Below the pieces are notes generated by a model. The model was given only the letters and a program-made list of their open reading frames with translations. It was not told the DNA's origin and did no database searches. Below, piece by piece: positions 2,580-63,079 of a stretch of 64,000 nucleotides of DNA. The stretch comes from an uncultured Candidatus Saccharibacteria bacterium (GTDB lineage: Bacteria > Patescibacteriota > Minisyncoccia > Phycocordibacterales > CAIZLB01), in the NCBI GenBank assembly GCA_964520545.1, contig CAZFOD010000001.1, positions 57,969 through 121,968 on the forward strand, written 5' to 3'. The position numbers and the translations under genes are program-made. The stretch's first letter is position 1, and every line of letters begins with the position of its first letter.

Positions 2580-3515
2580 ATGGAAACAACATTAGCAGTT
2601 ATCGAAGATCGTCATCCGATCACTGTGGCGATAGCTTGGGCTATTAAGCTTGAGTTGGTCACACCAGCTGGTGAGCAAACACTCATTGCGGATATGCAAG
2701 AGACGGTAACGGAGGCGACGAAGAAATTTGTCAATTTCGTCAATGTTGAATCGGTGCGTCAAGCACTCGATATCACCTTGGGTGTTCTCAGTTTGCCAGT
2801 CGCTCACTCGACGGGTGGAAAAATTAACCCTGAGGCGTGGGCGCAATACTTGCACGGTCGTAGCCTAAAAAAATTGGTTGCGGAAGCGCTCGCGCTGGTT
2901 AAGCCCATTGCGAATGCCCCGTTCGAGGCACAGTTCGAGGAATTCATCCCCGAAGAAGGGGCGTTAAGGAAGACCCTCATAGGGTATGCAACAGCTCGTG
3001 ATAAGAGTAGGAAAAACGTTTGGGCTGGATATGTGGATTTCTCCAGGGATCTTCACAGACAACAAGTTGGCGAGAAACGAAAAGAACTCGCTGACTGGCT
3101 CACTCGTGAATTGTTGAATTGTAGTTCTGAACATTGGTTCAGAGCTCAAATCCGAAAAGCTGGGAACAGTGATAACCCACCTAGCGTTCACGAGACAATC
3201 AACACGCTGATCCTACGGCACTGCTGCGGGTTATCAGTTAGTGGGAAGATCGAAGTGAAGAAGATGCAGTTCGAATGGTTACGAGAAGCTTTTGAAGCAG
3301 ACAAAGCCGTTTGGGTCGCGAAAGTTCGTCTGAAATATGACGCACTTTTCACTCGGATTCCAAAAGAACTCCGACAGTATCTTCTGCACACAGGTGGTGA
3401 CAAGTGGTTCAGTATCTACCTTTCTAAGGGTCCTCCCAAGGTCCCGAAGAAGTGGAACGATGCTGAATTACCGGGAATTACCGGTGTCTTCAGCTTCGAA
3501 ATGTTTGAGGATTAG
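2580..3515 (+). CDS. Hypothetical protein (311 aa)
   Basis: Long ORF in the high-GC island followed by an intrinsic terminator. No recognisable motif. Confidence 0.55.
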   Translation: METTLAVIEDRHPITVAIAWAIKLELVTPAGEQTLIADMQETVTEATKKFVNFVNVESVRQALDITLGVLSLPVAHSTGGKINPEAWAQYLHGRSLKKLVAEALALVKPIANAPFEAQFEEFIPEEGALRKTLIGYATARDKSRKNVWAGYVDFSRDLHRQQVGEKRKELADWLTRELLNCSSEHWFRAQIRKAGNSDNPPSVHETINTLILRHCCGLSVSGKIEVKKMQFEWLREAFEADKAVWVAKVRLKYDALFTRIPKELRQYLLHTGGDKWFSIYLSKGPPKVPKKWNDAELPGITGVFSFEMFED

Positions 3516-4628: not shown

Positions 4629-5153
4629 TTATTTATTGAACTTAGCTTTGTATGCTGATACCGACTTGTCGAATGCTGCTCGCGCTGCCGCTGCATCTTT
4701 GAATCCATGAGTTTCTACAACTTTGTTTTGAAGCTTTTTGTAAGTAAGGAAGAAGTGGTCGATTTCTTTGAGAGTGTGAGGGTTTACATCAGCAAGATCT
4801 TTCACATTGTCCCATCGAGGATCTTCTTCAGGTACAGCGATGACCTTTGCATCTGAATCACCACCGTCTACCATATCGAGTACAGCAACAGGTCGAACAC
4901 GTACCATTATTCCAGGAACAAGCGGGTATGTTGTAAGTACAACTACATCCAACGGATCACCGTCTTCCCAGAGTGTCTGTGGAACGAATCCATAGTCAAA
5001 AGGATAGTCTTGTGAAGTATGGAGAACACGATCAAGTGCTATGAGACCAGTTTTTTTGTCGATCTCATATTTATTTTTTGATCCCTTATTGATCTCGATG
5101 ATTGTGTTGATGCTTTCCGATGTTCCTGATTCTATATCATGCCAAAGGTTCAT
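4629..5153 (-). CDS. ppa: Inorganic pyrophosphatase, family I. Start trimmed to MNLWHDIE
   Basis: YEIDKKTG, DGDPLDVVVL, and a D(x)DxK-like acidic cluster match family I PPase. The track ORF has a 30-codon basic extension overlapping nusA, so the internal ATG at 5151-5153 is preferred. Confidence 0.8.
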   Translation of the reverse strand: MNLWHDIESGTSESINTIIEINKGSKNKYEIDKKTGLIALDRVLHTSQDYPFDYGFVPQTLWEDGDPLDVVVLTTYPLVPGIMVRVRPVAVLDMVDGGDSDAKVIAVPEEDPRWDNVKDLADVNPHTLKEIDHFFLTYKKLQNKVVETHGFKDAAAARAAFDKSVSAYKAKFNK

Positions 5154-13183: not shown

Positions 13184-14140
13184 ATGAAGAAGAACAAAAG
13201 ACCCCTTATCGTCGGTAACTGGAAGACAAACCCTGCAAGTTTCAGTCGAGCAAAAGAACGTTTCCAAGCTATTAAGCGCGCCGCAGCGGATCACAGTGGT
13301 ATTGATGTTGTCATTTGTCCACCATTTCCATACATTTCTGCTCTTTCCTCTCTTGCAAACATTAAAAATATTGCAGTAGGAGCTCAAGATCTATCTATAT
13401 ATGGAGAAGGATCAAAAACTGGTGAGGTAAGCGCACCAATGATATCTTCTTCAGGTGCTAAAGCTGTAATCATCGGTCATTCTGAGAGGCGGGCGATGGG
13501 AGAAACAGACTCAGTTGTTGCTGCAAAGATTGCTCAAGCATTAAAAACTGATATGCAAATCATACTATGTGTTGGAGAATCTGAGCGTGACAACGATGGT
13601 ACATATCTCGAAGTGATTAAGAAACAGTTAAAAGAAGCTCTTGTCGGACTCGAGCGAGTCCATTTCAGTCAGATAATAGTTGCATACGAACCAGTATGGG
13701 CAATTGGGAGGAAAGATAATGTTGCAATAACATCGCACGATCTTCATCAAATGGTTATTTACATAAAAAAGCTTTTCACCGAATGGTGGAGTGATACGGT
13801 AGCGATGATGGTTCCGATTCTTTACGGAGGATCTGTTACCGCTGAAAATGCACAAGACATTATGTGGAACGGCGAGGTAGATGGACTGTTAGTTGGCAGA
13901 GCAAGTTGGGAGGTTGAAACATTCGGACCTCTTTTTGATGCTGTTGATTCTCGCAAGCGATCAATAGTGGTTTTGACTAAAAAGAAGCCTCGAGAAGATG
14001 CACGTAAAGAATCTCAGTTAAAAGCAAAGAAGATTGCGAAGAAGCAGATAGTGAAGAAATCTAAAGCAATTGTAAGTCGTGTTACTGGAAAACCAAAAAG
14101 AAAATTAGTAAAAAAAGTTTCAAAAAAGAAAAGACAATAA
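13184..14140 (+). CDS. tpiA: Triosephosphate isomerase with a roughly 65-aa lysine-rich C-terminal extension
   Basis: NWKTN near the N-terminus, AYEPVWAIG active-site loop, and GGS near the C-terminus of the TIM barrel. The tail is KKKPREDARKESQLKAKKIAKKQ.... Confidence 0.85.
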   Translation: MKKNKRPLIVGNWKTNPASFSRAKERFQAIKRAAADHSGIDVVICPPFPYISALSSLANIKNIAVGAQDLSIYGEGSKTGEVSAPMISSSGAKAVIIGHSERRAMGETDSVVAAKIAQALKTDMQIILCVGESERDNDGTYLEVIKKQLKEALVGLERVHFSQIIVAYEPVWAIGRKDNVAITSHDLHQMVIYIKKLFTEWWSDTVAMMVPILYGGSVTAENAQDIMWNGEVDGLLVGRASWEVETFGPLFDAVDSRKRSIVVLTKKKPREDARKESQLKAKKIAKKQIVKKSKAIVSRVTGKPKRKLVKKVSKKKRQ

Positions 14141-24623: not shown

Positions 24624-24768
24624 AGGGCTTATGTTTTGTTGCCAACCCCTCGATTTAATGCTATTTTACTGCTACGACTTTTAGTCTCTCTTAGTTAGCT
24701 AAAACTGCCTTAAGTCGGTGCATTATTAACTGGTGGCGCAAGCCTCAAACTTATTCAATAAATTATTT

Positions 24769-26913
24769 ATGAATCGAGATTATCCATTAGAGAAAGTAAG
24801 AAACTTCGGTATCATCGCCCACATCGATGCGGGTAAGACAACTACGTCTGAGCGTATCCTTTACTACACCGGTATGTCACACAAGATCGGTGAAGTGCAC
24901 GAAGGAGAAGCGACCACCGACTGGATGGAACAGGAAAAGGAGCGAGGTATTACAATTACCGCCGCTGCTATTACTTGTTTCTGGAACCCAACTTACATGG
25001 GTAAGGATAAGTCACAAATGCACCGATTCAATATTATCGATACTCCTGGCCACGTGGATTTCACTGTGGAAGTTGAACGATCTCTTAAGGTACTCGACGG
25101 TGGAGTTGTTGTGTTCGACGGCGTTGCCGGCGTAGAACCACAGTCTGAAACAGTATGGCGACAGGCTGACAAGTACAACGTTCCTCGAGTTTGTTTCATT
25201 AACAAGCTTGATCGAACAGGTGCATCATTCGAACGATCATATGCATCTATTCTTAGCCGATTGAATAAGAACGCTGTACGAATGCAGCTTCCTATTGGTT
25301 TCGAAGGTGATTTCGAAGCTGTTGTAGATCTTCTTACCATGAAGGCATATCACTTTGAAGGTGATATGGGTAGCACAGTAGTTGAAAAGGAAATTCCTGC
25401 TGATATGGTTGCTGATGCAACAAAGTATCGAGCAGAGCTTGTTGAGAAGATTGTTGAATTTGAAGATTCAATGATGAACGCATACCTTGAAGGTAAGACA
25501 GACTTCACAATTCCTGAACTTAAAGCAGCTCTTCGAAAGGGAGTTATCGCTGGTAAAATCTTCCCAGTATTTACTGGTTCAGCTTTGAAGAACAAAGGAA
25601 CACAGCTCATTCTTGATGCTGTTGTCGACTATCTCCCATCTCCACTCGATGTTCCTCCAGTAAAAGGAATTGATCCTAATACAAACGAAGAAATTCTTCG
25701 ACATGCGTCTGATGAAGAACCGTTTGCTGCTCTTGCTTTCAAACTTCAGACAGATCCATTTGTAGGACAGCTTACCTTCTTCCGTGTGTACTCAGGTACT
25801 ATCGAAGCTGGTTCATATATTTACAATTCTACAACAGGAAACAAGGAACGACTTGGACGAATCGTACGACTTCAGGCTAACAAGCGAGAAGAAGTAAAGA
25901 AGGTGTACGCCGGTGAAATTGCAGCTGCCGTAGGTCTTAAGGAGGCGAAGACATCTCATACATTCTGCGATGAGAACAAGCCAATCATTCTTGATCCGAT
26001 TAAGTTTGCTGATCCTGTAGTGTCACTTCGAATCGAGCCAAAGACAAAAGCTGATCAGGAAAAGATGGGAAGCGCTTTGAAAAAGCTTGGCGATGAAGAT
26101 CCAACTTTCCGAATTTCTTCAAACCCTGAAACAGGAGAAACAATCATCTCAGGTATGGGTGAACTTCACCTTGAAATTATGGTTGATCGAATGAAGCGAG
26201 AGTTTGCTGTTGAAGCAAATGTCGGTAAGCCTCAAGTAGCATATCGAGAAACAATTCTCGGTGAAGCAGAGGAGGAGTATAAGTACATCAAGCAGTCTGG
26301 AGGTAAGGGTCAGTACGGACACGTACGACTTAAGCTTAAGAAGCTTGAACCATGGGAAGAAGGAAAGAAACTTCCAAAGAATGTTCATCGAGATGAAAAC
26401 TTTGAATTCATCGACTCAATTAAGGGAGGTGTTATTCCAATCGAATTTATCCCTGCTGTTGAAAAGGGTGTGAAGGAAGCAATGGAACGAGGTATTGTTG
26501 CAGGTTTCCCAATGGTAGGTATTTCATGTGAACTTCTCTTCGGTTCATACCACGATGTAGACTCATCTGAAATTGCATACAAGATTGCTGCTTCTCAAGC
26601 TTTCCAAGCTGGAGCAAAGCGAGCACGACCAGTTATTCTTGAACCGATCATGAAAGTAGAGTGTGTTATGCCTGAACAGTTCATGGGTGACGTAACAGGA
26701 TCTCTTTCATCAAAGCGAGGTCAGATTGAAGGTATGGAAGATCGAGGTTTGAACAAGGTTATTAAGGCAACTGTTCCTCTATCTGAAATGTTCGGATATA
26801 CAACTGACATCAGATCAATGACACAAGGTCGTGGATCAATGACAATGGAATTCGATCACTACGATGTAGTGCCGCCAAACGTTGAGAAGGTGATTGCTGA
26901 ATCAAGAAAGTAA
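24769..26913 (+). CDS. fusA: Elongation factor G. Start at [25 protein letters not shown]
   Basis: GTPase G1-G5 motifs and all EF-G domains. 715 aa. Confidence 0.95.
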
Positions 26914-26925
26914 GGTTACTAAACA

Positions 26926-26955
26926 AAAACTCCCGAGCAATCGGGGGTTTTTGTT
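26926..26955. terminator. Rho-independent terminator after fusA (ctcccga-gcaa-tcggggg plus T-run). The reverse complement also reads as a terminator
   Basis: Stem-loop followed by TTTTTGTTT. Confidence 0.7.
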
Positions 26956-26961
26956 TATATA

Positions 26962-26990
26962 TTGACCATTTTTATGCTTGAGAGTATTAT
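26962..26990 (+). promoter_or_regulatory. Near-consensus sigma70 promoter TTGACC-17-TATTAT driving the GC-rich RNA
   Basis: -35 TTGACC at 26962-26967, 17-nt spacer, -10 TATTAT at 26985-26990. Confidence 0.6.
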
Positions 26991-26997
26991 CAAAAAA

Positions 26998-27436
26998 CCG
27001 AGAGCTTGGAGTTGAATACATCCCATCCGAGAAGTCGAGGTAAGCACACATGAAAAGTTGGAGATTCTTAAGCGGCTTTGCAGCTGCTTTCATTGTTGGA
27101 ATCGCGGGATACGGCACCCCAAAGTTGCCAATTTCCCCGAACTCAGTCGTTCTGACTGTGGTCCCCGAGCAGCCGACGGTCCAGTTGGCAGTTCCTAGGG
27201 GAGTCCACCAACTCCTCTTTTCCACCAGTCAGATTCACCGCACTGCACGTCCTGAGTACGTCGTATGTGCAAAAGAAGCATGGTTACCCAAGGGCCCACG
27301 GCCCTTCCTCGCGGACTCGAGTGGCCCAAAGGGCCAGTTTCGGATCCACGAGGATCCTGGGAAAAGAAATCCTCGGCGGGATTTCATGAGACTGACGCCT
27401 CGCCCCTACACTGTGGGGGCGAGGCGTACTTTTTTA
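26998..27436 (+). ncRNA. Candidate structured ncRNA or long cis-regulatory leader (about 440 nt, GC-rich). Own promoter and strong intrinsic terminator at 27385-27436. Identity unknown
   Basis: Abrupt GC-rich block in an AT-rich genome. Several consecutive short GC hairpins (gggcc-CAC-ggccc, ggccc-AAA-gggcc, ggatcc-ACGA-ggatcc, gaaatcc-ucggcg-ggatttc). A 13-bp terminator stem plus T6. The in-frame reading with tyrA is Pro/Arg-rich, and the terminator lies inside it. Confidence 0.5.
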
Positions 27437-27475
27437 TCTCGGACAATTGTCTTACGTTTGTATATACTAAAGGTT

Positions 27476-28234
27476 ATGAAAATTGCAGTGATTGGAGGAA
27501 CAGGGGGAATGGGACAATCTCTGATTCGTTTTTTTAATCTGCATGGTTTGAATGCCATTGCGGTAGGAAGGAAAACCTCAATCCCAAAGCAAATTCTTGA
27601 AAGTGCAGATGTCATCGTCATCTCAGTTCCATCGAATAGTATTTCCTACGCTGTAAATCTTTTGAAACCTTTAAAGCTTTCAAAGAAACTGATAGTAAGT
27701 TTGGGTTCAGTTATGTCAAAAGATGAAAAAGCCCTAAAGCCTTTGCGCTCTAAGATCCTGCATCTTCATCAGCTTTTTGGCCCAAATACCTTTCCGTACG
27801 ATGGTCAGAAGGTTATTGTATCTGGAAATGTTTCAAATCCGTACGCGAAGAAGCTCATATTACTGTTGAAGAAGAATAAGGTTCAAGTGATGAGTCTCAC
27901 AATTAAAGCACACGACTCCTTGATGTCTAAGATTCAAGCACTTTCACAGTTTTCAATAATTTCACTCGCGAAGACACTTTCTGAGGGAGGAGGTAACAAG
28001 AAAGATCTTCTCGCAGCGTCTACCGTTACTTTTGGTATGACTGCTAGGAATATTGAGCGTATTTTGGCTCAAAAGGCCGATTTGTGGGCTTTTCTTCAGT
28101 TTGAGAACCCATTTGTACTTAAATTATTAAAAGGACATTTAAATAATGTGCAGTTAATGATTAAAACGGCTAAGAATAAGGATTATAAGAAGTTTGAACA
28201 GATTTTTAATAAAACTGCGAAGTTTTGGAAATAA
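27476..28234 (+). CDS. tyrA: Prephenate dehydrogenase (TyrA family). Start at MKIAVIGGTGGMG, not the 394-aa run-on ORF
   Basis: N-terminal Rossmann GxGxxG, the PDH family, and AT-rich codon usage like the rest of the genome. Confidence 0.7.
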   Translation: MKIAVIGGTGGMGQSLIRFFNLHGLNAIAVGRKTSIPKQILESADVIVISVPSNSISYAVNLLKPLKLSKKLIVSLGSVMSKDEKALKPLRSKILHLHQLFGPNTFPYDGQKVIVSGNVSNPYAKKLILLLKKNKVQVMSLTIKAHDSLMSKIQALSQFSIISLAKTLSEGGGNKKDLLAASTVTFGMTARNIERILAQKADLWAFLQFENPFVLKLLKGHLNNVQLMIKTAKNKDYKKFEQIFNKTAKFWK

Positions 28235-28235
28235 A

Positions 28236-28520
28236 ATGGCTAATAATATGAATGAATTAGAGTTACTAAGACAAAAAATCAACCAGCTAGACGCGGAATT
28301 GTTAGATTTACTGGCACTCAGGGGCGGTTTGTCCCAAGAAGTGGCTGAATATAAGGCTAAAAATAGCCTTCCTATATACCAACCACAGAGAGAAGAGGAA
28401 CTTTTCTCAAGAATAAGGACGATGGCGGCAGAAAAGGGCTTAGATCCTGACTACATTGAGTCTATCTTCAGATTAATCATCGAAAACTCAAAAAAACTCC
28501 AACTTAAAACCATTGCCTAA
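28236..28520 (+). CDS. Chorismate mutase (AroQ class), 94 aa, coupled to tyrA
   Basis: LRQKINQLDAELLDLLALRGGLSQEVAEYK is a CM_2 helix-bundle signature. The ATG is 1 nt after the tyrA stop. Confidence 0.7.
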   Translation: MANNMNELELLRQKINQLDAELLDLLALRGGLSQEVAEYKAKNSLPIYQPQREEELFSRIRTMAAEKGLDPDYIESIFRLIIENSKKLQLKTIA

Positions 28521-28552
28521 AAGCCAATATTAAAGTGGCCTTTAAAATAATT

Positions 28553-28582
28553 TGACATTACTAGACTATTTGCTACTATCAC
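28553..28582 (+). promoter_or_regulatory. Sigma70-like promoter TTGACA-16-TACTAT upstream of tuf, giving a roughly 240-nt leader
   Basis: -35 TTGACA at 28553, -10 TACTAT at about 28575. Confidence 0.5.
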
Positions 28583-28823
28583 CAATACGCGTTTTCGCGT
28601 TTTTTTGTCAGGCATCTTGGCTCTCGTTTGGAAATACATTGAGGCGACATACATTGAGACCGGCGTGAGCCACTCTCAAACATCAAAGCCACTCTCTTTC
28701 ACAACACCGAGGACAAAGCACTGTCGACAAAATTTTATTCAAAAATAATTAAATTACGGCTTAGTTGCTAGCTATAAGGCAATCTCGCGCTCTTATAGGT
28801 GGTAACTACTCCGACCCAAACAT

Positions 28824-32154: not shown

Positions 32155-32997
32155 ATGAAACGATATAAACCAACAAGCAAGTCACGAAGAAATATGATCA
32201 CCATCTCATACCGAGGTGTGATTACGACTAACGAGCCATACAAGCCTCTTACACATGGTTTTCAGCGATCAGTTGGACGAAACAACACTGGACGCATCAC
32301 CACTCGTCACAAGGGTGCTGGTAACAAACGAATGTATCGAGATATCGACTTTGTTTATGACAAAAAGGATATTCCTGCAAAGATTGTTAGCGTTGAATAC
32401 GATCCAAACCGAACAGCTTTCATTTCTTTGGTAAACTATGCTGATGGTGAAAAGCGATATGTAGTTCTCCCTAAGTCACTTAAGGTCGGTGATACATTTA
32501 TTGTCGGAGAAAAGGTAGAGATTAAGGCTGGTAACCGACTTCCTCTCCGAAACATCCCTGTAGGAACATTTATTTACAACATCGAGGTTAAACCTCTAGG
32601 TGGCGCTAAGCTCGCTCGATCAGCTGGAAACTATGCTGAAGTAGTAGCTCAGGACGAAGGCTTTACTCAGATTAAGATGCCTTCAACAGAAATACGAAAG
32701 ATAAAAGATACTGCATGGGCGTCAGTCGGTGAAGTTTCTAATGATGAGAACAGACTCCAGGCGTATGGTAAAGCTGGACGAAGTCGATGGAAGGGTATTC
32801 GACCAACTGTCCGAGGTACTGCTCAGAACCCAGTGGATCACCCACACGGAGGAGGAGAAGGCCGACAAGGACGAGGACGACGACGAGCAATCTCAGTTTA
32901 CGGAAAGCCTACTGGAAAGGGTCAGAAGTCTCGAACACCAAAGAAATATTCAAACAAGCTCATTGTCTCACGACGAAGAGTTGGAAAGGCAAGATAG
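32155..32997 (+). CDS. rplB: 50S ribosomal protein L2
   Basis: L2 signature (GGGEGR-rich C-terminus, HPHGGG). Confidence 0.95.
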   Translation: MKRYKPTSKSRRNMITISYRGVITTNEPYKPLTHGFQRSVGRNNTGRITTRHKGAGNKRMYRDIDFVYDKKDIPAKIVSVEYDPNRTAFISLVNYADGEKRYVVLPKSLKVGDTFIVGEKVEIKAGNRLPLRNIPVGTFIYNIEVKPLGGAKLARSAGNYAEVVAQDEGFTQIKMPSTEIRKIKDTAWASVGEVSNDENRLQAYGKAGRSRWKGIRPTVRGTAQNPVDHPHGGGEGRQGRGRRRAISVYGKPTGKGQKSRTPKKYSNKLIVSRRRVGKAR

Positions 32998-33030: not shown

Positions 33031-33087
33031 TTCTTGTGACTTTCTGTGTTCACATTGTGTTGCACCGTGATAGAATTATTCATACAG

Positions 33088-33954
33088 ATGAATAAGAATA
33101 TTCTTGTTAAAACAATCTTGGTATTTTCAGGGATCGTCCTCCTTTCTTCAGCAGGGTATCAGGCCGCAAAAGGATATTCGAATCTTTTCCCTCCAGGGTT
33201 TATTGAGACTCTTCCGCCAATCCCAACTAATGATGAGATGAAGGATGAAAAGGATAAGAACAAGAAGAAGCCTCCTTTTAAAAAGACAAAACCTGCTTTG
33301 CGTGAGGATGAGGGAAAAATTACTGAAGACGAAAACTTCTCTGAAGAGAATAACCCAGCTCCTACAGAAGCTGAAAAGAAAGCTTTAGAAGACGCTTTGA
33401 ATGGCGGTGAAGACAAGGGAGGAGGTGGTGGTCAAGAGAAAAAGAATGACCCTAATAACCCCCCGGTACAAAAAGAGGAACCACCAAAGAAGAATTTTCC
33501 TCCTGAGAAGGATATAACAAAAGGGGGTAGTAAGAATGCTCGCGGTACTTCAAACCCAAAAAATCAGGGCGGTACACCTATTCCAAATACGCAAGTTCAT
33601 TTCTATTCATCAACGGAATCAGTTAATGATCCTGGCTCTAGGGCATCTAAAGGTGAGGGGAATAGATCTCTGACTCCTTTGGGTGCAGAAGGGAACGGGC
33701 CAGTATCGGCTGCTTCTAGCTACTACAAGCCAGGAACCAGGGGTACTATCGACATTAACGGTAAGAGGGTGGCATTTGAGGTGAGGGATAGCAATATTAG
33801 CCCTAAAACTGGTCGACCTGTAAACGACAGAATTAACAAGCCAAATTCAATCGAGATCTTCACGAGCCAGAAAAATCCCGGAAGTGGCTTAAGGACGTCG
33901 GGAAACATGACGATTACTCATAACGCAGGGGTTCGCCCGAATTATAGAAGATAA
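33088..33954 (+). CDS. Secreted protein: signal peptide, long K/E/P/G-rich low-complexity linker, and a C-terminal roughly 100-aa domain resembling microbial guanyl-RNases (RNase T1/Sa/barnase superfamily). Start trimmed to MNKNILV
   Basis: The N-terminal hydrophobic signal. C-terminal motifs PGTRGT (compare RNase Sa PGARTRGTRR), GKRVAFEVRD (compare T1 GADRVVFNEN), and MTITHNAGVRPN (compare T1 GVITHTGASGNN). Confidence 0.5.
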   Translation: MNKNILVKTILVFSGIVLLSSAGYQAAKGYSNLFPPGFIETLPPIPTNDEMKDEKDKNKKKPPFKKTKPALREDEGKITEDENFSEENNPAPTEAEKKALEDALNGGEDKGGGGGQEKKNDPNNPPVQKEEPPKKNFPPEKDITKGGSKNARGTSNPKNQGGTPIPNTQVHFYSSTESVNDPGSRASKGEGNRSLTPLGAEGNGPVSAASSYYKPGTRGTIDINGKRVAFEVRDSNISPKTGRPVNDRINKPNSIEIFTSQKNPGSGLRTSGNMTITHNAGVRPNYRR

Positions 33955-33958
33955 ATAT

Positions 33959-34648
33959 ATGACTATATATCAAAAGATATTTGCAGGGTTAGTAGGTGCT
34001 GTCCTCACTGTGGTTCTAATTATTGGCGCCCTATTTGTCTTGAATTCATATTTGGGGTTGAAATTAGAATATTCATGGACTCCTGATCACTCTAAGATTG
34101 AAACACCTTCACAAATATACGCGAAAGTAATTGAAGACCTTTCTCCAGAGGTAAACGGTACAACTACGGACTATGTTTTGAAATTTTATAACGGCGAGAA
34201 CGCTATAAGTAGCTACATTGCTGTACCTGTAGAAAGTTTGGTCGCAACAGGCGATGGAAAATTAGCCATCGCAATATATGACGGTAGTAGCGAGGAAAAT
34301 TTAAAGGCCACTTATATCGCTGAAGTAATTGAAGACGAGTCTGCGATGAGCGCGGCTAATAATAATCGTCGTCCACCATTTATCGGACCGATTGTGCCTA
34401 ATGGGGAAGTTTGTTTCTACAATAACGATTCAAAGATAGAAGAATGTGATAAGCGATACAGGTACACAATAGATTGGAGTCCTGACAATGATGATATTTT
34501 TCCGCCATGGCAAGAAGCTGAAGCGTTGGGACCTCTGTTATATATGGATGAATTTGCAGATACAGATGTGTATGTTCGCAAACACATCCCAATTGATATT
34601 CGTTTGATACCAGAAAGTGCCACCACTTTTACATTCGGTAGGCAATAA
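33959..34648 (+). CDS. Membrane-anchored protein (N-terminal TM helix, extracytoplasmic domain), 229 aa. Candidate partner or immunity protein of the upstream gene
   Basis: Starts 5 nt after the previous stop. Single N-terminal TM. No recognisable motif. Confidence 0.5.
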   Translation: MTIYQKIFAGLVGAVLTVVLIIGALFVLNSYLGLKLEYSWTPDHSKIETPSQIYAKVIEDLSPEVNGTTTDYVLKFYNGENAISSYIAVPVESLVATGDGKLAIAIYDGSSEENLKATYIAEVIEDESAMSAANNNRRPPFIGPIVPNGEVCFYNNDSKIEECDKRYRYTIDWSPDNDDIFPPWQEAEALGPLLYMDEFADTDVYVRKHIPIDIRLIPESATTFTFGRQ

Positions 34649-34810
34649 TACGGCTATACAGAGCCATATATGCAGGGCAAAGCCTTAATTGACTTTTCTC
34701 GGTAAATGGTGTATAGTTATGACTAGGAATAGATAGATTCTTTGAAAGAGAACTTTTTTTAACACTGTTGATTTGACTGATTTACTCAGACAAATCTGAT
34801 CAATAGTGTT

Positions 34811-35251
34811 ATGAAAAGAACCACCCAAAATACAGTGGCCACCTTTCGTGGCCTCATGGCGATTCTCATCGCCTTCGTTGTTATCGCAACCCCTTCAACT
34901 GGGTGTGCGAAAGAAAAAAACAAAAACCCTACAACCCTTGGTAACCTTGGCAGTGTCAACATTTACCGCATTGAGTCAGTAGTGCGGGAAGATGAAAACG
35001 GGGCAACCATTACCTACGTAACGCTTCAAGCAAACGGGTCATGGTCCAAGGAGCTGAAGAAAAGCGATGTCCCCTACGTTCAACACTTCAAGGGGCAGTA
35101 CTTCTCGGGAGTGAGCGCTCCCGAGGGGCTCATTACCCTGATGTTCTTCTCGGAGAACGACTCCAGTGCCTGTGACGCCGCCCTAAAGCAACGTCCTGAC
35201 AAGGGGGAAACGGTGCTCTGGATTCGGAAGGCCCTGATAAGCTCGAACTGA
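34811..35251 (+). CDS. Putative lipoprotein (signal peptide with lipobox STGC), 146 aa, GC-rich
   Basis: N-terminal signal plus Cys lipobox. Higher GC than flanks. Confidence 0.5.
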   Translation: MKRTTQNTVATFRGLMAILIAFVVIATPSTGCAKEKNKNPTTLGNLGSVNIYRIESVVREDENGATITYVTLQANGSWSKELKKSDVPYVQHFKGQYFSGVSAPEGLITLMFFSENDSSACDAALKQRPDKGETVLWIRKALISSN

Positions 35252-35506: not shown

Positions 35507-35854
35507 ATGACACGATCACTAAAGAAAGGACCATACGTTGAAGAGAAGCTCTTGAAGAAAATCGAGGGCAAAAAACCCACAGATACTGGGGTTATTAAGA
35601 CATGGTACCGACGAAGCCAGATCTCTCCGGAGATGGTAGGTTTCATTTTTGGTGTTCACAACGGTCGACAGCATGTTGAAGTACTTGTCTCAGAAGAAAT
35701 GGTAGGTCACCGACTTGGAGAATTCTCACCTACACGAAAGTTCATCCGACACGGAGGTAAGATGCAGAAAGAGCTCGATCAGGCTAAGAAAGACTCTGAA
35801 ATCGCATCAGCTAAGGCTGCAAAGACAGCCACAGATGCCGCTCCAAAGAAATAA
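35507..35854 (+). CDS. rpsS: 30S ribosomal protein S19 with an A/K-rich C-terminal tail
   Basis: S19 signature ([12 protein letters not shown]...HNGRQHV). Confidence 0.95.
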
Positions 35855-62668: not shown

Positions 62669-62676
62669 TTGATGTG

Positions 62677-63079
62677 TGGAGATGCCGGGAATCGAACCCG
62701 GGTGCAGGTGAGTTTCTTAGATGAATCTACGCGACGTAGAGGGTCTTTGCGGCAGAGCCGTTTTAAAGTTCGTTACTAGAAGACAGACAAAACGTAACGA
62801 ACCCGAGCTTTATGGTTTCGGCGGACGATTAAAGCAAATCGTCAACCTATTCTGAATATATACCACCGGCAGTTCTGCTTCAGAAAGACAGAACTGTGAT
62901 GTCGCTAGGCGTGGAGCGTTAGGCTCGGGCTGTTGCGAAGGCGAAGTCCTTCACCGCAAAAAACGGAGAAGCTACCGCTTGTCGTGCTTTAGCACTTAAG
63001 GGTTCCAGCAGTTTTACTAGTTACTGGAGCTAGATCGCGCACAAAGAAGAAATGACACTTGTCGAAGCCAATCATCCCC
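62677..63079 (-). ncRNA. ssrA: tmRNA (transfer-messenger RNA), about 403 nt, immediately downstream of smpB
   Basis: 5' GGGGAUGAUUGGCUUCGACA (tmRNA 5' consensus). Acceptor stem GGGGAUG/CAUCUCC with the G3-U70 alanine identity pair. 3' T-arm GGGUUCGAUUCCCGG, then discriminator A. An internal tag-like frame ends at UAA. Confidence 0.85.

Follow-up and report, generated by a model that had tools for sequence, protein, structure and literature searches.

We analysed a stretch of DNA of 64,000 nucleotides (nt) from an uncultured Candidatus Saccharibacteria bacterium, hereafter the window, and here consider a GC-rich segment of it, the element, which lies between fusA and tyrA and which gene calls attach to TyrA as an N-terminal extension. 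Positions are those of the whole window, and refer to the + strand unless stated otherwise. With somewhat better than even confidence, we read the element as a stand-alone gene for an orphan small protein, carried on a structured mRNA. Its family is undescribed and has a very narrow distribution, but it is ordinary in kind, being a gene for a small lineage-specific protein accompanied by an annotation artefact. The only unusual aspect is the evolutionary signature, which rests on four sequences. The protein sequence appears to be almost unconstrained outside an N-terminal anchor and a C-terminal motif, and there is modest evidence that the RNA evolves in a structure-preserving manner.

In the scheme that we propose, a near-consensus promoter of the sigma-70 type would drive a monocistronic transcript of ~440 nt, comprising a 53-nt 5′ untranslated region (5′ UTR) with a conserved stem-loop, an AUG at 27050, and an open reading frame (ORF) of ~105 codons, and closed by a strong intrinsic terminator. 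The ORF would give an orphan protein with a signal anchor or signal peptide, a proline-rich linker, a variable middle and an H-x-DPG-K/R end. The mRNA, GC-rich and strongly folded, would be under constraint at the nucleotide level while the amino acids drift almost freely. In the window, the stop codon would have been lost (AAA TGA to AAA AGA relative to the lineage L007), giving the artefactual 394-residue ‘TyrA’, with tyrA itself expressed from its own promoter.

The element was found in four lineages, namely the window, L007, L004 (whose TyrA is the protein P0006) and L091, the last of which was reached by a phmmer search against 1.84 billion representatives. The TyrA of L007 is 88% identical to that of the window; for L004, the identity is 55% over the TyrA part and 43% over the whole fused ORF. 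At the nucleotide level, the other copies of the element are only 42–53% identical to those of the window and L007 and to each other.

A promoter-to-terminator unit with a conserved reading frame

An earlier note on this DNA, made from the letters alone, had described a GC-rich, structured unit of ~440 nt running from promoter to terminator, and this anatomy was borne out. The promoter it had named, TTGACC-17-TATTAT at 26962–26990, agrees with the consensus at 10 of 12 positions and predicts a transcription start at ~26997. Its layout recurs in L007 and L091 (TTGACC-17-TATTAT) and in L004 (TTGACG-17-TAATAT). The terminator stem, ACGCCTCGCCCCTAC-ACT-GTGGGGGCGAGGCGT followed by ACTTTTTT, has 15 base pairs, 11 of them G-C, and not the 13 that the note had counted, whereas its presence and its position, with 40 nt from the end of the T-run to the tyrA ATG at 27476, stand as described. 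This terminator is conserved in all four lineages, being 98% paired with 5 of its 15 pairs changed on both sides. As classes, such sites show only a mild excess in the region (seven promoter-like sites against 4.3 expected, seven terminator-like sites against 1.9 expected); despite this, the promoter and the terminator of the element itself are kept in four of four carrier lineages. The abrupt jump in GC content was also confirmed, with 0.385–0.39 in the flanks and 0.525–0.57 between 27000 and 27400, as was the folding of the unit. In the window, its + strand is more stable than dinucleotide shuffles, at z −5.7 when the terminator is included and −3.0 when it is left out, and the − strand reaches z −3.1.

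The best-conserved part of the element is its 5′ UTR, where CUUGG (27005–27009) pairs with CCGAG (27027–27031) and an inner hairpin is formed. Helices 1 and 2 of this region are 92–95% paired, and L004 shows a G-C to A-U double change. With a promoter and an intrinsic terminator of its own, both conserved among homologs, the segment 26962–27435 constitutes an independent promoter-to-terminator unit for which a transcript of ~440 nt is predicted. On the opposite strand, a promoter-like site inside tyrA (TTGACA-16-TACTAT, 27692–27719, −; 10 of 12 matches) faces the element; given the counts of promoter-like sites above, it is probably a chance occurrence.

Within this unit, the frame that begins at 27050 (frame 0) contains no stop codon in any of the four copies, compared with two to eight stops in the other frames. 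Under dinucleotide shuffles, the probability of a stop-free frame was 0.05, 0.06, 0.01 and 0.04 for the four copies; when only the variable positions were permuted, the frame stayed open with a probability of 0.25 in L007, 0.05 in L091 and 0.03 in L004. Every gap that separates the window, L007 and L091 from one another has a length divisible by three (3,3 / 6,3,3 / 6,3,3,6), even though the MAFFT alignment used nucleotides only. The ATGAAA start is conserved, a DPG follows in the same frame 101–106 codons on, and there are synonymous changes within the C-terminal H-x-DPG-K/R motif (GAT/GAC, CCT/CCG). By codon score, too, frame 0 ranks best in four of four copies. The element thus displays an open homologous frame, a conserved start and in-frame insertions and deletions, as a coding gene does. 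From these alignments, the integrity of the ORF appears to be under selection, which would mean that the frame is very probably translated. A purely non-coding RNA, as the earlier note had considered, does not fit a frame that is conserved in all four lineages, with indels in register and with a signal-anchor-like N-terminus.

The predicted protein has a consistent layout. In every copy it starts with MK, followed by basic residues and ~17 hydrophobic residues, a feature that the other frames lack; in three of the four copies, the 17-residue stretch of highest hydropathy begins at residues 3–6 of frame 0 (Kyte-Doolittle 1.7–2.25). After this signal-anchor-like N-terminus come a proline-rich linker and a middle part that varies, and the H-x-DPG-K/R motif is found at the C-terminus. 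The alignment, the hydropathy and a helix predicted by AlphaFold at residues 5–18 together show the basic n-region and the h-region of 15–20 residues that are typical of a signal peptide or signal anchor, and the product would accordingly be a membrane-anchored or secreted protein. Peptides predicted from frame 0 include LPISPNSVVLTVVPEQPTVQLAVPR, GVHQLLFSTSQIHR and IHEDPGK; those predicted for read-through include …DFMR and LTPRPYTVGAR.

Searches for relatives returned very little. The small-ORF protein has no match above the curated cutoffs of Pfam and NCBIfam, and the phmmer search with the translated segment against the 1.84 billion representatives produced only two credible relatives, P0015 and P0018, of 107 residues each. 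A covariance model built from the first 171 nt of the element (R1) recovered only the four known copies, with no paralog in the window or at other tyrA loci, including a GC-rich ORF in L014. In metagenome contigs, the 5′ UTR pattern GAGAGCTTG-N15-30-GAGANGTCGANGTA occurred at 70 loci, all of which were rejected, as they belong to an unrelated, GC-rich motif that codes for protein on the other strand. In viral contigs, a first pattern gave three chance matches, rejected by the covariance model, and a second pattern gave none. A TyrA search of genome contigs found only an irrelevant match in Actinoplanes, and nothing specific to the element was found in the literature.

The false extension of TyrA and the relation to tyrA

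The ORF at 27050–28234, with which the public gene calls are identical, joins 142 codons (27050–27475) in frame onto MKIAVIGGTGG to make a protein of 394 residues. The cause is a missing stop codon. Where L007 reads AAA TGA, the window reads AAA AGA, and the frame consequently runs on across the terminator and the promoter of tyrA and into that gene. By comparison, the ORF ends after DPGK (TGA) in L007 and after DPGRR (TAA) in L091, which is 31 and 17 nt, respectively, ahead of the terminator stem. When the 394-residue protein was used as a query, 12 related TyrA clusters were found; 10 of them are 242–265 residues long, start with M[KN]I..IGG.GG and carry no extension, and the extended form is confined to the window protein (P0001) and P0006 (400 residues). 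No Pfam family matches the 142-residue extension or the other long frames of the segment, and the sequence from 27476 onward matches PDH_C. For tyrA itself, the comparison of the window with L007 gives a ratio of nonsynonymous to synonymous rates (dN/dS) of 0.08, with substitutions over the three codon positions of 24/12/82, the third being dominant.

The 394-residue fusion is an annotation artefact, and TyrA starts at 27476. The earlier note was therefore right to call the 142-codon extension a mis-call, given the 10 clusters without it and the terminator and promoter that it would contain. It had added that TyrA homologs sharing this N-terminus would speak against that view, and P0006 formally is such a homolog; however, P0006 is the same artefact. 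Its fusion likewise encloses a terminator and the tyrA −10, and it arose independently of the one in the window. We consider it extremely improbable that the long ORF is real and encodes a TyrA preceded by a membrane anchor and a linker. Stop-free, in-frame fusions do exist in two lineages (P0001 and P0006), and both recur across several independent assemblies. Nevertheless, the coding region would have to contain a promoter and a strong, conserved terminator, the linker is not conserved but differs between the two fusions, L007 and L091 have stop codons at this segment, and the great majority of TyrA clusters (10/12) begin at M[KN]I..IGG.GG. Moreover, a stop-free join in frame would arise by chance with a probability of ~0.1 per lineage, as estimated from 24–38 codons and a one-in-three chance of the frame.

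A further possibility raised by the earlier note is that the element serves as a long, terminator-controlled 5′ leader, a non-T-box attenuator, of tyrA and the chorismate mutase gene that follows it; as one mechanism, ribosomes that translate the leader ORF across the terminator would determine whether transcription reads through. The element does lie directly upstream of tyrA in three of the four lineages, and in the window and L004 the ORF crosses the terminator in frame into tyrA, such that a translating ribosome could melt the terminator. Yet a conserved −35/−10 pair of tyrA stands between the terminator and the ATG. The −10 TATACT ends 7 nt before the ATG, the promoter segment of the window agrees with that of L007 at 39 of 40 positions, and each of the 11 lineages examined has a TATACT or TATAAT hexamer 6–11 nt ahead of the tyrA start codon, whether or not the element is present. 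Most genes in the window have no Shine-Dalgarno sequence, and in several (for example at 13184, 44661 and 52053) the ATG is immediately preceded by a −10-like hexamer, which suggests that leaderless or short-leader mRNAs are widespread in this organism. Taken with the −35/−10 of its own, this general scarcity of Shine-Dalgarno sequences points to a tyrA that is probably transcribed from its own promoter, as a leaderless or very short-leader mRNA. In L091, moreover, the element is not contiguous with tyrA, since ~560 nt with a minus-strand ORF separate the element terminator from it, and the ORFs of L007 and L091 end ahead of the terminator stem, as given above. Seven other tyrA lineages with readable upstream DNA, among the 11 examined, have no element, nor has the contig of the TyrA homolog P0009. 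T-box and amino-acid leader models have no match inside the element, and its ORF has no run of Tyr or Phe codons. The promoter of tyrA downstream of the terminator and the intervening gene in L091 thus disfavour an attenuator, and we regard this role as very improbable.

What lies upstream of tyrA differs from lineage to lineage, and the region is a variable cassette site. It may hold unrelated signal-peptide proteins, a minus-strand gene family, or the ORF of L014. The last occupies 3493–3897 of L014 and is an uncalled, GC-rich ORF of 134 residues with a lipobox, MKNSLGLCALSVILVIGTC, and a GC content at third codon positions (GC3) of 0.69; other contents of the slot were located at 3014–3910 in L011 and 305–1171 in L018. 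The minus-strand family, of 151–183 residues, is conserved in L009 (3406–3948, −), L011 (2186–2737, −), L019 (2248–2751, −) and L020 (2339–2794, −). As for L091, it is a Logan contig of 1254 nt that has the same 30 nt, ACATCTATTCCAAAACAAATTCTTGAAAAT, from inside tyrA, at both ends (1–30 and 1225–1254). This suggests an assembly-graph cycle, with the implication that the sequence upstream of the element promoter is not trustworthy there.

The features of the region are collected in Table 1. Two further gene arrangements were noted in the neighbourhood. Upstream of fusA, an acyltransferase gene (PF01553, 23775–24623) is inserted between rpsG and fusA of the str operon, an insertion that is kept in L007 and L014. 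In the S10 operon, rplB (32155–32997) and rpsS (35507–35854) are split by three ORFs without a Pfam match (33046–35251), of ~288, 229 and 146 residues. A hydrophobic segment is present at the N-terminus of each, and the first contains many Lys, Pro, Glu and Gly residues.

Table 1. Coordinates of the element and of the genes and signals on either side of it
Feature	Position	Strand	Remarks
fusA	24733–26913	+	Gene upstream of the element
fusA terminator hairpin CCCGAGCAATCGGG	26932–26945	+	Flanked by A- and T-runs; closes the upstream unit; conserved in L007
Element promoter	26962–26990	+	−35 TTGACC (26962–26967), 17-nt spacer, −10 TATTAT (26985–26990)
5′ UTR, 53 nt	26997–27049	+	Conserved stem-loop; GAGGUAAG 9 nt before the AUG
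Small ORF, 105 codons	27050–27364	+	MKSWRFLSGFAAAFIVGIAGYG...FRIHEDPGK
Read-through tail of the ORF	27365–27475	+	Not conserved at the protein level
Element terminator	27395–27435	+	15-bp stem with 3-nt loop (27395–27427), then AC and T6 (27430–27435)
tyrA promoter	27440–27468	+	−35 CGGACA, 17-nt spacer, −10 TATACT; 9/12 matches
tyrA proper, 252 residues	27476–28234	+	Prephenate dehydrogenase family; start MKIAVIGGTGG; Pfam PDH_C
Chorismate mutase (CM_2)	28248–28520	+	Partner of tyrA in every lineage

Constraint on the protein and on the RNA

Several observations weigh against a small-protein gene as the explanation of the element, a number of them by pointing to the RNA. Between the window and L007, substitutions in the small ORF are spread evenly over the codon positions (15/16/16), and dN/dS is 0.69, as opposed to 0.08 for tyrA and 0.005 for fusA, the controls, in the same type of comparison. 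A further comparison of the small ORF gave a dN/dS of 0.65 and codon positions of 54/47/55. Purifying selection on the amino acids of the small ORF was not detected, and codon periodicity was not significant in any comparison, including those of distant pairs and that of the nucleotide alignment. At the same time, synonymous divergence (pS) is 0.19 in the small ORF and 0.36–0.49 in the acyltransferase, tyrA and chorismate mutase genes, that is, synonymous sites are 2–2.5 times more conserved than in the flanking non-ribosomal genes, and identical residues use the same codon at a frequency of 0.88, compared with 0.67 in tyrA (Fisher p = 0.0003). This low synonymous divergence and high codon identity point to constraint at the RNA level. 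The GC3 of the small ORF is 0.58 against 0.37 for the genome. With the alignment of four sequences, AlphaFold2 reached a predicted local distance difference test (pLDDT) score of 49.6, a confidence too low to be informative, and predicted only the N-terminal helix. A stop codon ahead of the terminator is present in L007 and L091 and missing in the window and L004, where a terminated transcript would consequently be a non-stop mRNA. The GAGG upstream of the AUG is weak evidence for translation, as genes here mostly lack a Shine-Dalgarno sequence, and the element is known from four lineages only.

The folding data pull in the same direction. Without the terminator, the four copies fold with z of −3.0 (window), −4.4, −4.7 and −1.7. 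When relatives were threaded on the minimum free energy structure of another copy, stems were spared (p ≤ 0.01) in five of eight comparisons, compared with none of 14 for coding controls. RNAalifold gave 84 consensus pairs, of which 25 are changed on both sides, as opposed to 9.5 ± 2.3 in shuffles and 3–10 in slid controls, the structure having been fitted to the same four sequences. Among the hairpins with double changes are AAGCGGCU/AGCUGCUU to AGGCGGCU/AGCUGCCU to AGGCAG/CUGCCU, CAGUC/GACUG to CAAUC/GAUUG, and GGCA/UGCC to GCGC/GCGC to GUGU/GCAC. The stability of the fold is thus evident, and its covariation, judged on four sequences, which are too few, is suggestive.

These results are what would be expected of an independent structured RNA whose function resides in the RNA itself, be it a non-coding RNA in which the ORF is incidental or a dual-function RNA like RNAIII/hld and SgrS/SgrT, with translation of the ORF being secondary or serving the function of the RNA. 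The jump in GC content, the folding of three of the four copies, the even distribution of substitutions with its dN/dS of ~0.7, the conserved synonymous sites, the spared stems, the double changes and the two of four lineages without a stop before the terminator all speak for it. However, it is improbable that ORF, start, frame and length would be retained at 42–53% identity without translation. For the ORF part, the structure conservation index (0.18) is no different from the values of tyrA coding controls (0.13–0.23); compensation, with the changed positions held fixed, was significant in only two of 12 comparisons (p 0.0025 and 0.03; controls 0/16); the consensus structure was optimised on the very sequences it is judged by; and the sparing of stems can partly reflect clustered substitutions. 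In addition, Rfam has no match, and at the C-terminus it is the peptide motif that is conserved and not the local hairpin. We therefore rate a function of the RNA itself as rather unlikely.

A quite improbable alternative would combine both constraints in a translation-sensing RNA device, that is, a structured and abundant transcript whose long ORF must be open and translated while the sequence of the peptide hardly matters. The stop codon would then be deliberately missing in half of the lineages, and ribosomes would melt the terminator, thereby coupling translation to read-through into tyrA and chorismate mutase. Alternatively, ribosomes would stall at the 3′ end and engage transfer-messenger RNA (tmRNA). 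The window does encode a tmRNA at 62674–63079 (−; Rfam 86.5 bits; ARAGORN tag peptide AKARQAVASPFFAVKDFAFATARA), which is relevant to a small ORF without a stop.

That tmRNA is the only match of Rfam 15 in the whole window at the gathering threshold. A search of 26850–27550 at E ≤ 10 with permissive filters gave none above threshold, and inside the element only scraps of 10–16 bits; matches above 20 bits in this region fall only on the fusA terminator, where Phe, His and Leu leader models were sub-threshold. The earlier note had suggested an RNase P-sized candidate and an Rfam scan to identify it. Within the element, no described RNA appeared even at E ≤ 10, and as the RNase P models had no match to the element region at that level, we reject RNase P RNA. 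The note’s remark that a T-box is absent proved correct, as RF00230 has no match at E ≤ 10 and the DNA ahead of 27395 shows no T-box sequence. Other large or known RNAs covered by Rfam 15 (6S, SRP, OLE, HEARO, ROOL, GOLLD and raiA) were not found in the element either.

Another spacer in the window, between chorismate mutase and tuf (303 nt, 28521–28823), has arguably more of the character of a structured RNA than the element upstream of tyrA. It is identical at 299 of 303 positions between the window and L007, though pS of the adjacent chorismate mutase is 0.36; its counterparts are at 5046–5348 in L007, 5063–5366 in L009 and 1455–1714 in L015. It contains a promoter (TTGACA-16-TACTAT, 28552–28579) and a small hairpin followed by T7, and ~215 nt within 28585–28823 fold with z −5.65. 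Of the 65 pairs of this fold, 10 have changed on both sides, and the fold is retained even where the TyrA proteins are only 47–60% identical. Rfam has no match for this spacer, which looks like a conserved structured leader of EF-Tu.

Significance and comparison with known systems

The analysis corrects a recurrent annotation error, in which the ‘TyrA’ database proteins of 394 and 400 residues are two genes fused, and it assigns to the tyrA-chorismate mutase pair of these Patescibacteria a promoter of its own and, probably, a leaderless mRNA. It also brings out an orphan small gene with an odd signature, in which the ORF stays intact and RNA-level features are kept, but the protein sequence varies and the stop codon can be dispensed with. 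Should this signature reflect a function in the RNA or one coupled to translation, the element would be a rare example in bacteria of the Candidate Phyla Radiation (CPR), for which, to our knowledge, almost no regulatory RNAs are known. Otherwise, it would be an ordinary gene for a surface or secreted protein specific to its lineage, located at a variable cassette site beside tyrA.

Among known systems, bacterial RNase P RNA resembles the element only in its size (~400 nt) and its GC-rich hairpins, and differs in that none of its models matches. Amino-acid attenuators and T-box leaders share with it the position upstream of an aromatic gene, the intrinsic terminator and an ORF upstream of or overlapping that terminator. 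Unlike them, the element matches no model, has no regulatory run of codons and is separable from tyrA, as in L091, with the tyrA promoter lying downstream of it.

Dual-function small RNAs, such as RNAIII/hld, SgrS/SgrT and SR1/SR1P, are likewise promoter-to-terminator transcripts of a few hundred nucleotides that combine structure with an ORF. Their ORFs have 26–43 codons and make up a small part of the RNA. The ORF of the element, by contrast, takes up ~70% of the transcript; a target or base-pairing region was not identified.

The remaining comparison is with the orphan small proteins, secreted or membrane-anchored, of CPR bacteria and Patescibacteria. From these the element departs in the GC3 of its mRNA (0.58, against 0.37 for the genome), in folding far better than shuffles, in having synonymous sites more conserved than those of its neighbours, in a dN/dS of ~0.7, and in the stop codon that is missing in two of four copies. 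In its other traits it conforms to them. The predicted product is a protein of ~105 residues made up of MK, basic residues, a hydrophobic helix and a proline-rich linker; it belongs to no Pfam or NCBIfam family, has a very narrow distribution and evolves fast; and the same slot beside tyrA is occupied, in sister lineages, by unrelated signal-peptide proteins.

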